A stretch of 64,000 nt of DNA from Thermodesulfobacteriota bacterium (GCA_965215275.1 OZ244044.1:560855-624854); one strand, 5' to 3'. Shown: positions 1-20,845, counted from the first letter of the stretch. Numbers and translations are program-made. Notes: generated by a model not told the origin, from the letters alone.

Positions 1-2680
1 CCAGAACGGATAATCCGGCTTCTCCGGGGTGCGTGCCCTGAATGGGTTGCCCCAGCTGCATCTGATCCCCCACCAGAATGACGTTCTTGGTAGCACTGGA
101 CATGGCTACGACGTTGGCAGTGGAGACTTGCCCGGCTTCATCAATGAACAGGTAATCCAGCTTCCCATCGAAATGCAGTTTAGCAAATGTCCAGGCCGTT
201 CCGGCAAACAGGTCTGCGTTAAGGTCCATATCCCCGGTACTGGTCTCTGAGCAGATGAACTTCCCTTCAAAGACCGTCTCGTTATTGTTGATGGTGGCTT
301 TTTTGATACCACGGAAGCGTACGCTTTTTTCTGTAGCGACATCTTCGACTTTCCTCAGAATATTATGAATGGCCTTATGCGAGTTGGAGGCAATACCGAT
401 CTTTTTGCCGCGCTTTATCAAGTCCACGATAATGTGGCTGCTGGTATAGGTCTTACCTGCACCCGGAGGACCTTGTATAAAAATATAGCTGTTCTCCAGT
501 GCAGCAATGGCTTTCAGTGCATCACCCTGCAGATCATTTGAGGTAATAATGGCCTTGTCCGACTGTTTACCTTTAATACGTGGAACTTCGCGGTTCAGCA
601 GTTCCGTAGCGAGGTGAACCTTGCCAGGTGATTTCAACACATGATCCGCGTAGCGGTAAATGGCTGATCGGAGGTCATTAGCGTCGATAGGAGCATGTGG
701 ACCGATGGACAGGCTTTCCGGCAGCGGATCTCGACCGTTTCCGCGCTTGATCTTGACGATACAGTCAGAATCATCGATCTCGACGATGACGCCAGCTGGG
801 GCCATAACTGCGACATTATCTACATTCGAGTTGACCTTCAGCTTGTATTCCTGTGGCGGAAAGCTGTAGGTGTAGACCAGTGAGCGTTTTTCATGCTCGG
901 GACCACCAACTTGCTTCAGGCCGGCAAGGCATTCGATGTCATCGATCAACTCATCTTCAGGCTTGTTCTGCCGATCAAATCTACTCCACCATTGCGGCTT
1001 GGCTTCCCGTCTGTGAAACTCCAGCAAATGGGCCAGTTTCTCATTGATGGGTGGCGGGTTTTCTCCGGTCATGCCCAAATGGTTCTGGTAATCCTCATAT
1101 TGTATTTCCCAAGGCTTGCGCTCCACCGGTTTTTCTTCCCCGGCATCCTCCGTCAAGTCTTTTTTGGACCGCTGCGTACCCACGGTTTTGAGAGTTAAAA
1201 GCCAGTTTCGCAGTAAATGCGTGGAAACACAGTCCTTCTCGTTATACTCAACAATCTCCTGCAGTAACTCATCGTTACCAGTTTCACGCCATTTATTATA
1301 AACGACTATACTTTCTGCAGCCGTCTTCACCGCGTCGTCCCGCTCGTTCATGTAAAAGGTCTCAAGGTTCTTAAGGGAATAGCCCGGCTCTGAGGTGCGA
1401 ATGCTCTCGCGCACGACCGCATACAGATCGATGAACTTATGATAGCGCAGCAGATTGTCCATCTGCTCTTCACGCACTGCATAACGACAGGCCAGACGTT
1501 TAAGTGCCGTTGTTTCATAATGGTTGTAGTGATAGATATGAGCATTGGGATGTTTGGTCAGATGATTTTCCAGAAAGGCCATAAAGCGTTCAAAGGTCTT
1601 TTTCTCTTCCTTGTGATCATGTGCCCAGAACGGCTTGAATACCCCTGTACCGTTCTTTAAATAGTAAACCCCGAACAGGTATTCCAGGCCATTTGGATAA
1701 AGCGGGTCTCCCTCCATATCGAAGAACAGGTCTCCATTGTCCTGCACGGGTATGCGGTCAAAACCTTTTCCCGGCAGAACGACCTTAATAACCTCGTACT
1801 TATTTTCGCCCGTGGTCTTCTTGTGATGCTGCAAGACGGCTTGAGAGCGCAGGCGCGAGAACCCGTCACGGTTCAGGTCAGGGATCTTTGTATCCTCTGC
1901 CGTGGAAGCCAGATCAGCGACCGTCCGAACATCTGCCTTTCGTAGTTTGTCCATCTGCGACCGCCGAATATTGGCCACAAGGCTGAGATGATCGTCTTCC
2001 TCCCACTGTGCTTTACAGCGGTCCTGCCACTGGCAGAATTTACAGTGGCTGCAGGGCTCAGGATAGGAATCTGCAGGCAAGTTCTTTATGTAGTTCTCAA
2101 AGCGGTCCTTGGCACGGGCGTAATAGTAGCGGAAGTCATCCACCCGGAAACTGTGCTTCTCATTATTCCCCAGAAACAGGTGCATGTTCACCGGATGAAG
2201 CTCCTGCAAGGTGGTCAGCAGTTCGGAATAGACGCACAGTTGCATTATGTGCTTAGGTTCGGCATTCCGCTTCAGTTTAGTGTCCAGGACCTCATAGCTG
2301 AAATTACCCAAGCCGGACGGCGTATCGCACTTGATCAGAAAGTCTGCATCACCCCGCCACGGTGCAGCAAATAACACGGCCTGATATATCACGTCCGTGC
2401 CGGATTTCATGGCATTAAGCGTCAGTTCTGCCCGGTCCTTCAGTTCCCCGTCTTTGGGAATTTCAGCAACGGTCTTGCCTTCATCCTTCAGGAGCTGGAG
2501 GTAGGAATCCTCATGCTCCAAGCCTTTCTTCTGTATCAACTGGTTCGTTGGACTGTCCTCGGTGGTTGCTATATCCTCGTTCAGTGCCTTCACATGAAGA
2601 AAACTCGCATGGTGGCACCCTAAAAAGGTGACCAAGTCCGAAGGTGAATAGAGTATCTGTCCGTTACTGTCTTGCCGCAT
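1..2680 (-). CDS. Partial (5' part in window, continues past position 1) RecB/Cas4-like (TM0106-family) nuclease + RNase H-like exonuclease + SF1 DNA2/Upf1-like helicase fusion protein
   Basis: Not in the ORF track because the stop lies outside the window. Reverse-strand translation from ATG at 2680 is open to position 1 (>890 aa). It begins MRQDSNGQILYSPSDLVTFLGCHH. It has a Cas4/AddB-like Cys cluster CSHCKFCQWQDRC, a DEDD-like motif DLFFDMEGDP, Walker A IFIQGPPGAGKTYTSSHII, a DExx box YLFIDEAGQ and motif III VILVGDQMQLGQP. Confidence 0.75.
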   Translation of the reverse strand, partial: MRQDSNGQILYSPSDLVTFLGCHHASFLHVKALNEDIATTEDSPTNQLIQKKGLEHEDSYLQLLKDEGKTVAEIPKDGELKDRAELTLNAMKSGTDVIYQAVLFAAPWRGDADFLIKCDTPSGLGNFSYEVLDTKLKRNAEPKHIMQLCVYSELLTTLQELHPVNMHLFLGNNEKHSFRVDDFRYYYARAKDRFENYIKNLPADSYPEPCSHCKFCQWQDRCKAQWEEDDHLSLVANIRRSQMDKLRKADVRTVADLASTAEDTKIPDLNRDGFSRLRSQAVLQHHKKTTGENKYEVIKVVLPGKGFDRIPVQDNGDLFFDMEGDPLYPNGLEYLFGVYYLKNGTGVFKPFWAHDHKEEKKTFERFMAFLENHLTKHPNAHIYHYNHYETTALKRLACRYAVREEQMDNLLRYHKFIDLYAVVRESIRTSEPGYSLKNLETFYMNERDDAVKTAAESIVVYNKWRETGNDELLQEIVEYNEKDCVSTHLLRNWLLTLKTVGTQRSKKDLTEDAGEEKPVERKPWEIQYEDYQNHLGMTGENPPPINEKLAHLLEFHRREAKPQWWSRFDRQNKPEDELIDDIECLAGLKQVGGPEHEKRSLVYTYSFPPQEYKLKVNSNVDNVAVMAPAGVIVEIDDSDCIVKIKRGNGRDPLPESLSIGPHAPIDANDLRSAIYRYADHVLKSPGKVHLATELLNREVPRIKGKQSDKAIITSNDLQGDALKAIAALENSYIFIQGPPGAGKTYTSSHIIVDLIKRGKKIGIASNSHKAIHNILRKVEDVATEKSVRFRGIKKATINNNETVFEGKFICSETSTGDMDLNADLFAGTAWTFAKLHFDGKLDYLFIDEAGQVSTANVVAMSSATKNVILVGDQMQLGQPIQGTHPGEAGLSVL

Positions 2681-2814
2681 ATTTTTTTACAAAAACGCCA
2701 TTGCTGTATTTTTTATGGTTGAAGCACAAAGCATTCCATAATACTTTAATTTTAACAGCAATCAAATTACAGACGTTTTGTCAAGATGGCTAATATTCTG
2801 AAAAAGATGGCGGC

Positions 2815-3142
2815 ATGAGCAAAAAAATCGCAAAGCCTGACTATACAAGACGAAACCACCGAATTTCTTCTCTACACGGCTCCGGAGGGAGGAATAAAAG
2901 TTGAGGTTATTCTGAACAGCGAGACTATCTGGTTAACCCAGCAGCGTATGTCCGATTTGTTTGGAGTAAGTCGCACAAGTATTGGAAGGCATCTAAAAAA
3001 TATCTTTGCAGCAGGAAAATTAGACGAAGACGTGGTATGTGCAGAAATTGCACATACCACTAAGCACGGTGCAATTCCGGGCAAAACTCAAAAAAGATTG
3101 GGTGCGATTTATACCTTGCAATTTGCTCTGACTTGGTGCAAA
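2815..3142 (+). pseudogene. RhuM-family (virulence protein RhuM-like) N-terminal remnant, frameshifted near its start and truncated after ~100 residues
   Basis: An in-frame open stretch 2819..3142 reads DETTEFLLYTAPEGGIKVEVILNSETIWLTQQRMSDLFGVSRTSIGRHLKNIFAAGKLDEDVVCAEIAHTTKHGAIPGKTQ. This matches the conserved RhuM N-terminus (TxDG..K.EV..EnETvWLtQ.QmaELF......I.eHlKNIF.eGEL...s.C.eF..t...G...GKTQ). An ATG at 2815 (MSKKIAKPDY...) is in another frame, suggesting a frameshift. The homology ends where the ATPase begins. Confidence 0.45.
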
Positions 3143-19926: not shown

Positions 19927-20682
19927 GTGAACAAAAAAAACGTGACAAATAACAAGGTTTTAATGCCTGCTATTGAAAAGGTGGAACAATCTGATTCTGT
20001 CTATCCCAGTCGCTTGCTCACCGTATTGAAAAACAAAGCACCAACAACACTTTATTTACAAGGGAATATCAGCCTTCTGGAAATGGATGGAATCGGATTT
20101 TCCGGGTCCAGAAATTCCAGTCAAAATGGAATAGATACAGTCAGAGACTGTGCTGAGCAAGCTGCCAATGCCGGGCTCGCCGTAATCTCCGGCAATGCCG
20201 CAGGCATAGACCTTGAAGCACATTATCACGCGCTCTCCGCGAATGGCTCGACCATTCTCGTTATTCCAGAAGGAATTAACCATTTCCGAATAAAGCGTGC
20301 ACTGGTACCCGTCTGGGATTGGGAGCGTACACTCGTAATCAGTCAATTCAACCCTGACGATGCATGGAAAAATTATCGTGCTATGAAACGTAATCAGGTG
20401 ATCATTGGTTTAAGCAAAGCAATGATCGTCATCGAGGCTGGAGAAAAAGGCGGGACCATGAATGCCGGGATGGAGACACTTAAACGTGATACCCCTCTCT
20501 ACGTGGCTGAATACCAGGATATGTCAGTTGATGCTCGGGGCAACAAAAAACTACTTGAGCTTGGTGGAAAGCGGCTGGCTCGCAGCCGTTCAACAGTCCG
20601 TGCGAATATGAAAAATGTCTTTGATGATGTTACTAGAGACCCTGCAAACCAATCCCATCAAGATCAGACAGGACTTATTTAG
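19927..20682 (+). CDS. DprA/Smf-like (SLOG-superfamily Rossmann) protein, short form without obvious C-terminal wHTH
   Basis: DprA core GIGFSGSRNSSQNGIDTVRDCAEQAANAGLAVISGNAAGIDLEAHYHALSANGSTILVIPEGINHF...NQVIIGLSKAMIVIEAGEKGGTMNAGMETLKRDTPLYV. Track start is GTG at 19927; ATG at 19963 (MPAIEK) is an alternative. It is separated from the DUF499 gene by a 257-nt AT-rich spacer. Confidence 0.65.
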   Translation: MNKKNVTNNKVLMPAIEKVEQSDSVYPSRLLTVLKNKAPTTLYLQGNISLLEMDGIGFSGSRNSSQNGIDTVRDCAEQAANAGLAVISGNAAGIDLEAHYHALSANGSTILVIPEGINHFRIKRALVPVWDWERTLVISQFNPDDAWKNYRAMKRNQVIIGLSKAMIVIEAGEKGGTMNAGMETLKRDTPLYVAEYQDMSVDARGNKKLLELGGKRLARSRSTVRANMKNVFDDVTRDPANQSHQDQTGLI

Positions 20683-20754
20683 TTGTGAATTACTGATGTC
20701 TGAAGATAAACCGTCACAAGGTTATTAAAAGTATACAGTCCACTTTTTATTTAA

Positions 20755-20845
20755 TGGCGGAGAGGGAGGGATTCGAACCCTCGGTACGCGGTTAACGCAC
20801 ACACGCTTTCCAGGCGTGCACCTTCGGCCACTCGGTCACCTCTCC
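20755..20845 (-). tRNA. tRNA-Ser (anticodon GGA), class II with long variable arm, CCA encoded
   Basis: Reverse complement GGAGAGGTGACCGAGTGGCCGAAGGTGCACGCCTGGAAAGCGTG...GAGGGTTCGAATCCCTCCCTCTCCGCCA. Anticodon stem CACGC/GCGTG with loop CUGGAAA. The 3' end faces the island. Confidence 0.85.

Follow-up and report, generated by a model that had tools for sequence, protein, structure and literature searches.

A probable patchwork of defence and accessory cassettes bordering tRNA-Ser(GGA) in an uncultured marine Thermodesulfobacteriota genome

We have analysed the left-hand part of a 64,000-nucleotide stretch of DNA, hereafter the window, from a Thermodesulfobacteriota bacterium (GCA_965215275.1 OZ244044.1:560855-624854). 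Positions 1..20754, which lie against a tRNA-Ser(GGA) gene, hold accessory-type genes only by Pfam, PADLOC and NCBIfam annotation, as an earlier note on this DNA had stated. They probably form the larger part of a ~23.5-kb accessory and defence island without an integrase, situated between the dapF side and tRNA-Ser and put together as a patchwork of cassettes that were acquired independently. The block holds no fewer than four independent modules of defence type, namely an Hma system, a Type IIG restriction-modification (RM) gene, the remnant of a ShosTA-like module and a PDC-S01 ATPase, and a SoFic-like gene lies just outside it in a close relative. The earlier note had proposed a mosaic defence island at a tRNA integration site: its mosaic nature is borne out by the unrelated modules, their distinct origins and the turnover of cassettes, but site-specific integration at the tRNA is not, as neither an integrase nor an attachment (att) site was found.

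Gene content and borders of the block

The tRNA-Ser(GGA) gene (20755..20845, minus strand) is intact (ARAGORN; Rfam tRNA, 57.3 bits), and the two programs agree with the earlier placement of the block against its 3' end. That end, at 20755, faces the block and reads GGTTCGAATCCCTCCCTCTCCGCCA; the last island gene stops at 20682, 72 bp short of it. To the right of the tRNA follow the expected core genes, cytochrome c, tRNA-Leu(caa) and surE, and an Rfam scan of 1..30000 returned the two tRNAs and no other non-coding RNA. The left end of the island is visible in a close relative, which was found through a 98% identical copy of a 214-amino-acid (aa) protein of the metal cassette described below (contigs ENA ERZ21848999 NODE_183 and NCBI GCA_964348445.1). 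In the left flank of this strain (locus L168) the nuclease-helicase gene that opens the window is followed by a SoFic-like Fic/DUF4172 gene (PADLOC SoFic, 3.2e-43), a 129-aa fragment of an S-adenosylmethionine-dependent (SAM) methyltransferase and then dapF, and the housekeeping genes of the flank comprise dapF, dodecin, a cytochrome c assembly gene (ccsA), prfA, 5-formyltetrahydrofolate cyclo-ligase, RNase Y, ubiE and MTHFR. Since position 1 of the window aligns with L168 ~12680 and dapF ends at L168 15455, the island reaches ~2.7 kb past the window, for a total of ~23.5 kb. Further in-frame methyltransferase-like sequence lies upstream of the 129-aa fragment, at L168 15030..15143, together with a G8 run (C8 on the coding strand), and the fragment may thus be another homopolymer-interrupted gene.

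Judged by its sequence, the module in the right half of the block is a complete and compact HmaABC system. The hmaA gene (10385..13963, plus strand) codes for a Swi2/Snf2 helicase with a C-terminal NOV_C / PD-(D/E)xK nuclease; the PADLOC HmaA model is covered at 1-1175 of 1176 positions from residue 17 of the open reading frame (ORF), with 2110 bits, the domain matches are SNF2-rel_dom (3.3e-15), Helicase_C (1.4e-22) and NOV_C (1e-19), and the motifs GSGKT, DEAH and, at aa 1108, the nuclease motif IEVKG are present. Next to it, hmaB (13964..16819, plus) encodes a DUF1156 N6-adenine DNA methyltransferase (PADLOC HmaB, full length, 1336 bits; DUF1156, 1e-22; motifs DPFAGG and DPPY), and hmaC (16835..19669, plus) a DUF499 AAA+ ATPase (PADLOC HmaC, model positions 1-941 of 941, 1537 bits; DUF499, 1.9e-34; Walker A GGGKTH). 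The three genes are adjacent and co-oriented, with gaps of 0 and 15 nt; the components listed earlier as a DUF1156/DUF499/SNF2 system are thus all there, although their actual order is helicase, DUF1156 methylase, DUF499 ATPase. HmaB is the most diverged of the three proteins, with 89% aa identity to the relative and 50% to its nearest match elsewhere, on contig L173.

Hma was named by Payne et al. 2021 and is widespread, with 1,638 instances in 26 phyla (PMC8565338). The Halomonas HmaA, the only one so assayed, protects E. coli from phage T4 by itself, and its nuclease (nickase) domain is required (Liu 2024, PMC11232893); Hma has since been reclassified among the Type-1 DUF499-centred BREX-related, RM-like systems, for which an RM-like mechanism was proposed (PMC12839542). 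The locus described here resembles known Hma systems in its three adjacent co-oriented genes, its full-length, high-scoring PADLOC matches and its conserved catalytic motifs. It differs from most of them in being compact, with no embedded genes and no Septu system nearby; embedded genes occur in about 63-67% of described Hma loci, so that the compact form is the minority (PMC11232893; 10.1101/2024.01.29.577857). HmaC has no Pfam match beyond DUF499 and the HEPN-fused variant is therefore not indicated, although no search was aimed at HEPN. Unlike the described systems, this one belongs to an uncultured lineage related to Dadabacteria and is known from its genes alone. By analogy, HmaB would mark self DNA by N6-adenine methylation, HmaC would scan or sense DNA, and HmaA would translocate along and nick foreign DNA through its PD-(D/E)xK domain. 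About 300 nt upstream of hmaA, a C9 tract (10062..10070, plus) is followed by ATCAACCCGG and then by TATAAT, 10 nt past the tract. Homology with the relative resumes at 10056, just ahead of this tract. It may be a promoter spacer tract, but it measures C9 in both strains. The small ORFs at 9923..10404 have no family match on either strand.

The Type IIG RM gene (4487..7371, plus) is read in two ORFs, 4487..6511 and 6487..7371. It matches the PADLOC model REase_MTase_IIG (PDLC03630, model length 1100) at positions 331-681 (3e-34) and 801-1060 (2.7e-14) and carries the Type IIG motifs ECKK (4673), DPSCGSG (5552) and NPPW (6104). At the junction of the ORFs lies a homopolymer of 13 C residues (6461..6473, plus). 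In silico, tracts of C11, C14 or C17 restore a single ORF of 960-962 aa, and any other length cuts the protein off at ~675-680 aa. The assemblies of the relative show C11, with an extra base upstream and hence also out of frame, and C17. Because tract length differs among assemblies (C11, C13 and C17), the gene is probably phase-variable through a poly-C switch, which would be OFF in the window. Two contigs break off no more than 90 nt from the tract, and another ends at it in junk sequence; moreover, the window contains seven C runs of at least nine residues against 0.46 expected, a ~15-fold excess. Against phase variation stands the OFF state of both complete assemblies, and the differences in the tract may have another source, either a frameshift fixed in a gene that is dead or an error in assembling the homopolymer. 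In Campylobacter and Helicobacter, phase-variable RM genes of Types IIG and III carry homopolymeric G/C tracts (PMC8355987, PMC3936762). As in these, the poly-C tract of the window lies inside an ORF that fuses RM and methyltransferase functions, and its length sets full-length versus truncated product; the assemblies of related sequences also differ in that length, through real variation or assembly error. Unlike them, the host is an uncultured marine bacterium and not a host-adapted pathogen, and the locus is known from assemblies alone. The enzyme would restrict and modify only in those cells in which the tract had slipped to C11, C14 or C17.

The gene nearest the tRNA, at 19927..20682 (plus), is a DprA-like gene related to ShosA and PsyrA (Pfam DNA_processg_A, 2.9e-41; PADLOC PsyrA, 8.9e-54, and ShosA, 1.1e-33); against the PDB the protein finds DprA 3uqz at 3.9e-16 and ShosA 9vzo at 1.4e-11. 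In the relative, an intact gene for a 275-aa protein resembling a phosphoribosyltransferase (PRTase) ends directly upstream of it. The window retains only the two ends of this ShosT/PsyrT-like gene, as a remnant at 19669..19926 (plus) recognised by alignment to the relative's locus L170: window 19669..19840 corresponds to L170 9124..9297 at 76% identity and window 19849 onward to L170 9923 onward at 96%. Since the flanking matches lie that far apart in L170, ~625 bp of the gene are missing from the window. Residues 9-42 survive at 19728..19829 (50% identity) and residues 255-275 at 19848..19910 (86%). What had been taken for an AT-rich spacer at 19.7..19.9 kb is indeed AT-rich, with a G+C content (GC) of 0.346, but it is the remnant of a gene rather than mere spacer. 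The intact 275-aa protein carries a phosphoribosyl pyrophosphate (PRPP)-loop motif and, in its C-terminal half, weak matches to the PRTase part of PADLOC PsyrT (7.2e-09) and ShosT (4.1e-05); Pfam Pribosyltran is found at 0.005, below the cut-off, and PDB 1vdm at 0.0086.

A partner of 275-304 aa stands directly upstream of a DprA-like gene of 244-251 aa in all five homologue contexts, with a gap of ~13-23 nt by called coordinates. The pair follows Hma in the relative and in L173, and in a Sedimenticola metagenome-assembled genome (MAG; L172) it follows an RL-type DUF499-DUF3780-DUF1156-PLD-helicase system. It also occurs alone beside an Eco47II RM system (L174) and inside a Legionella pneumophila conjugative element (L175/L176), and these two contexts rule out that the pair is a strictly Hma-specific accessory. 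In ShosTA, a toxin-antitoxin defence system, ShosT is a PRTase toxin and ShosA a DprA-like antitoxin that binds single-stranded DNA and RecA (PMC11961720, PMC12961424). The pair resembles ShosTA and PsyrTA in that a DprA-fold protein is coupled, in all relatives, to an upstream PRTase-like protein with a PRPP loop, and in that it travels with defence and mobile-element cargo. It differs from them in that the partner in the window is internally deleted, leaving the system incomplete; in the distance of the relationship, the DprA-like protein scoring no better to ShosA than to true DprA; and in that the match of the partner is confined to the C-terminal PRTase part and lies below the Pfam cut-off. 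By homology, then, what the window keeps of a ShosTA/PsyrTA-like pair is its DprA-like half, an orphan. With the toxin gene gone, the module would be non-functional as defence; the intact DprA-like gene may nonetheless serve a purpose by itself, for instance in anti-addiction immunity to incoming copies or in recombination or repair. No description of a pair of PRTase-like and DprA-like genes was found in the Hma and BREX-related literature searched. We entertain, as a doubtful conjecture, a wider interpretation in which the pair would be a distinct ShosTA/PsyrTA branch, often directly downstream of DUF499-centred BREX-related systems and possibly an abortive-infection backup to them, in which the DprA-like gene kept in the window would function alone, and in which the layers of the locus would be individually switched or shed.

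Between the RM gene and hmaA lie five minus-strand genes. Four of them form a putative metal-handling cassette (7729..9492): a 137-aa membrane protein with an LLCC motif, a vicinal Cys pair (7729..8142; no Pfam or NCBIfam match), an HMA-domain protein (8114..8410; Pfam HMA, 4.3e-08), a 214-aa protein resembling outer-membrane proteins, notably in its C-terminus (8425..9069; no Pfam match, 1361 homologues), and a secreted Cys/His-rich protein of 119 aa with a signal peptide (9133..9492; no Pfam match). The earlier name, mer-like, had its basis in the HMA domain and the CC motif only and is not borne out, no match to MerT, MerA or MerR being found in the cassette. A TARA scaffold carries the same four genes at 50-82% aa identity, flanked by housekeeping genes, with 82% for the 214-aa protein, 77% for the HMA protein and 71% for the membrane protein, and yet its HemA and IspG are only 29-35% identical to those of the window. 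Because its closest copies reside in organisms with distant housekeeping proteins, the cassette has spread horizontally, and calling it accessory was justified. The same comparison rules out the possibility that the metal trio (7729..9069) is part of the lineage core and divides the block into two islands. A metal trio of ~54% identity also stands beside the surE block in 13-14 fetched loci from Dadabacteria/Thermodesulfobacteriota, all among L002-L022; in that clade (for example, L008 16647..18253) it comes directly after the block from surE to a luciferase-family gene, and in the window it lies 12 kb to the left of surE in the opposite orientation. The fifth gene (9527..9781, minus) codes for an 84-aa GIY-YIG mini-protein (Pfam GIY-YIG, 3.9e-05), 87% identical in the relative. 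Two homologues of it (58% and 72% aa) occur in the unrelated, defence-rich L173, at 13194..13439 and 15848..16096, and the mini-gene may, as there, travel with Hma and PRTase-DprA cassettes.

At the left edge, 2..2686 (minus) encodes the N-terminal 895 of 1120 aa of a TM0106-family protein that combines a RecB-like nuclease, RNase_H_2 and a superfamily 1 helicase (TIGR03491, 3.3e-95; Pfam RNase_H_2, 1.6e-35, and AAA_11/AAA_30). The gene continues past the edge, and a 1120-aa protein matches these residues at 100% identity. PADLOC gives partial helicase matches to Mokosh MkoA/MkoC and nothing more, so that the gene does not count as a known defence system. The RhuM remnant named in the earlier note is present as a fragment of a PDC-S05-type (RhuM-like) gene at 2819..3151 (plus), for which the support consists of PADLOC PDC-S05/S23 matches (best 2.7e-13): residues 1-50 of the ORF, whose open frame begins at 2819, align with model positions ~33-85. 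The fragment is joined in frame (2819..4327) to an intact AAA_14-DUF4143 ATPase (3152..4327, plus), the PADLOC candidate PDC-S01 (3.2e-92; DUF4143, 5.8e-44; AAA_14, 2.9e-26), and the relative has an in-frame stop at that place.

Base composition is uneven along the block. The RM gene has a GC of 0.371 and a third-position GC (GC3) of 0.27-0.28, against ~0.45-0.58 for the GC3 of core genes, and the spacers at 7372..7728, 9782..10061 and 19670..19926 have GC values of 0.308, 0.271 and 0.346. Of the compositional claims made earlier, the uneven blocks, the low-GC RM gene and the three spacers stand, but a helicase operon of ~50% GC describes HmaA only, since Hma averages 0.478 (HmaA 0.507, HmaB 0.437, HmaC 0.484).

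Turnover between two strains

The relative aligns to the window at 88-96% nucleotide identity and carries the same island in the same order, and the core DNA to the right of tRNA-Ser is 96.2-96.4% identical between the two strains. The island was therefore already present in their common ancestor. Since then it has been altered cassette by cassette, through deletion, allele replacement and insertion of a mobile element. The PRTase-like gene is deleted in the window, and the AAA_14-DUF4143 gene is truncated in the relative, where it ends just past the Walker A motif, window 3249..4430 having no counterpart in locus L161. The N-terminal part of the RM protein (nuclease and methylase) is 72% identical between the strains, as against 95-99% for the products of neighbouring genes, which argues for replacement of the allele. 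Identity is also lower for HmaB (89%) and the GIY-YIG protein (87%) than for HmaA and HmaC (96%), and the spacer at 9790..10055 has been replaced. Finally, the relative alone carries a 2,668-bp transposon of the IS1595 family between the cytochrome c and tRNA-Leu genes (L170 11436..14103), with window 21359..21366 as the empty site; the element is bounded by terminal inverted repeats of 25 bp, GGGACTTATATACTTRACTCCACAA, and flanked by a duplication of 8 bp of target, AAAATTTT, and it encodes a DDE_Tnp_IS1595 transposase together with an N6_N4 DNA methyltransferase as passenger. Variable DNA is thus found on both sides of tRNA-Ser and cytochrome c, and the tRNA does not mark its limit.

Further to the right, homology with the relative ends after the 311-aa luciferase-family gene (26654; L170 19446). 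There the relative has a gene for a 1648-aa Csx12-type (Cas9-like) protein, and the window instead has, at 26669..27298, a 209-aa gene with a GC of 0.349 and no Pfam match; the region from 26654 looks like a second strain-variable site. Two other low-GC patches occur in the window. One (36951..39558, GC 0.35-0.36) holds three minus-strand genes just upstream of tRNA-Met (39634..39710, plus), one coding for a PDDEXK_4 nuclease (8.2e-36) and two without a Pfam match; the other (57524..58536, GC 0.34-0.35) holds genes for a 163-aa TPR protein and for a 145-aa protein with a weak, below-cut-off match to DUF3169. At 42741..49019 (minus) lies a gene for a secreted subtilase of 2092 aa, with a Peptidase_S8 domain, a proprotein convertase P-domain and ~15 He_PIG Ig-like repeats; this gene, with a GC3 of 0.372, includes a G9 run at 44717..44725.

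Origin of the island

We used SurE to scan GTDB species genomes and JGI metagenomes for more distant relatives. The closest SurE matches, at 66-70% aa identity, come from Candidatus Dadabacteria and Thermodesulfobacteriota MAGs, and the housekeeping neighbours, SurE included, reach at most 66-74% to any genome or metagenome scanned. These relatives have tRNA-Pro ahead of surE, and not tRNA-Leu or tRNA-Ser; their synteny with the window is confined to the segment from surE to the 311-aa luciferase-family gene (25685..26620), with none on the island side. The proteins of the island behave differently: outside their own species, their best matches are at 70-85% aa identity to proteins from MAGs named Proteobacteria, Sedimenticola or PVC (Planctomycetes-Verrucomicrobia-Chlamydiae). 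The nearest copies of the nuclease-helicase (70-76%) come from MAGs named Pseudomonadota, Parvularculales and PVC, that of the DprA-like protein (85%) from a Ca. Sedimenticola endophacoides MAG, and those of HmaA, HmaB and HmaC (74, 50 and 65%) from L173, an unrelated contig of 155 kb. Island proteins are thus closer to those of distant taxa than core proteins are to anything, and, on this evidence of sequence identity, the cassettes appear to have separate, foreign histories.

Domain scans returned no integrase, recombinase or transposase from any island gene scanned or, in six frames, from four of the six spacers (all but 4328..4486 and 20683..20754), in agreement with the earlier statement that no integrase is visible in the window. 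That note had expected an integrase and an attL repeat further left; neither was seen in the left flank of the relative, where the called genes up to dapF (L168) include no integrase and no tRNA and where nothing matches the tRNA-Ser 3' end. A second copy of the terminal 12-45 nt of tRNA-Ser was absent from the 64-kb window and from L168/L169, allowing up to 12 mismatches in 45 nt, and a search for long direct repeats in 1..21600 yielded short, chance-level matches only. We infer that the island accumulated by repeated recombination into a permissive spot, and not by one integration targeted to the tRNA. A permissive interval that ends by chance at a tRNA gene would take up independent cassettes and would then erode and be remodelled; the cassettes would be the nuclease-helicase (with Fic), the decayed RhuM-like gene with PDC-S01, the switched-off Type IIG gene, the metal cassette, the GIY-YIG gene, HmaABC and the DprA-like gene.

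Several points weigh against this interpretation. An empty site was not found, as the sole close relative carries the island and the remaining relatives (SurE at 70% or less) lack synteny there; in consequence, the claim that the block is an insertion into an ancestral arrangement is argued solely from the taxonomy of best hits and from composition. The MAG proteins carry unverified taxonomic names, and the left boundary is that of the relative and not of the source genome. The GC of the whole island (0.451) is no different from that of the rest of the window (0.444), from which it follows that most cassettes are either ameliorated or derived from donors of similar GC. In addition, an old integration, its integrase and distal att site since decayed, could have left the adjacency to the tRNA as its trace.

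In its full form, the last point becomes the proposal that a single element (a genomic island or the remnant of an integrative and mobilizable or an integrative and conjugative element) was integrated site-specifically at the tRNA-Ser 3' end; the element would since have lost its integrase and the att repeat at the far end, or these would lie in the source genome's own left flank. The 3' ends of tRNA genes are preferred targets of tyrosine integrases, and the island abuts this one in the canonical orientation; the several visibly decayed genes make the loss of an integrase plausible. A phage integrase is, furthermore, present in 19.1% of hmaA neighbourhoods (PMC11232893). We nevertheless regard a single integration as unlikely, because neither an integrase nor a remnant of one was found in the 20.7 kb of the window or the 2.7 kb of the relative's left flank, no tRNA-derived repeat appears even at 12 mismatches in 45 nt, and the gene proximal to the tRNA is DprA-like and not an integrase. 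Moreover, the cassettes differ in composition and in their nearest relatives, and in the relative variable DNA is found also beyond tRNA-Ser and cytochrome c. Like tRNA-linked integrative islands of the pathogenicity-island or P4-like integrase type, the block is positioned at a tRNA 3' end and has accessory cargo and a mosaic composition; unlike them, it has no integrase and no tRNA-derived flanking repeat and shows no sign of moving as a unit.

That the block is native, vertically inherited chromosome, with GC variation reflecting gene-specific constraints, is still harder to sustain. It would agree with the conserved gene order in both strains at 88-96% nucleotide identity, close to the 96% of the core, with an overall GC equal to the genome background, and with the presence, in 13-14 Dadabacteria/Thermodesulfobacteriota loci among those fetched, of a homologous metal trio close to the surE block. 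However, not one of 160 loci anchored on surE in relatives contains any of the island's defence genes, island proteins share 70-85% identity with those of distant taxa when core proteins reach at most 74% to anything, the GC3 of the RM gene (0.27) falls far outside the core range, and the Hma and ShosTA-like modules are patchily distributed and mobile (PMC8565338; homologue contexts, this work). Prophages and phage satellites often carry defence systems, the block adjoins a tRNA, and the DprA-like protein and its partner match PHROGs of unknown function, but we reject a degraded prophage or satellite with defence cargo as scarcely credible, since the island proteins include no PHROGs structural family, no capsid, tail, terminase, portal, repressor, integrase or primase, no other PHROG match lends it support and att repeats are absent.

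An origin by repeated recombination into a permissive interval is consistent with what is known of defence islands and of hotspots that gather defence genes between core genes without an integrase (Makarova 2011; Hochhauser 2023; both cited by 10.1101/2024.01.29.577857). The block resembles such hotspots in its unrelated modules clustered between core genes, in the cassette-level differences between strains, in its decayed genes and in having no mobility genes of its own. It differs from them in including a non-defence metal cassette and in being represented by two genomes of the lineage only, too few to gauge its occupancy across strains.

Significance for the lineage

Every component of the island belongs to a known type of system, and no current concept is changed by it. 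What the locus documents is the organisation of anti-phage genes in a marine lineage, uncultured and related to Dadabacteria, whose genome measures ~2 Mb. A single hotspot without an integrase brings together a compact Hma system, a Type IIG gene that is probably phase-variable and a ShosTA-like module that has lost one half; the hotspot turns over, one cassette at a time, between strains that are ~96% identical in their core DNA. The locus also illustrates that adjacency to a tRNA is not in itself evidence of insertion mediated by an integrase. The poly-C tract of the RM gene is a candidate contingency locus outside host-adapted pathogens, and the window offers a clean natural example of the loss of a toxin with retention of its antitoxin. 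If the conjecture of a distinct PRTase-DprA branch were true, that branch and the poly-C switch together would describe, for a marine bacterium with a small genome, a defence locus that switches or sheds its layers one at a time.

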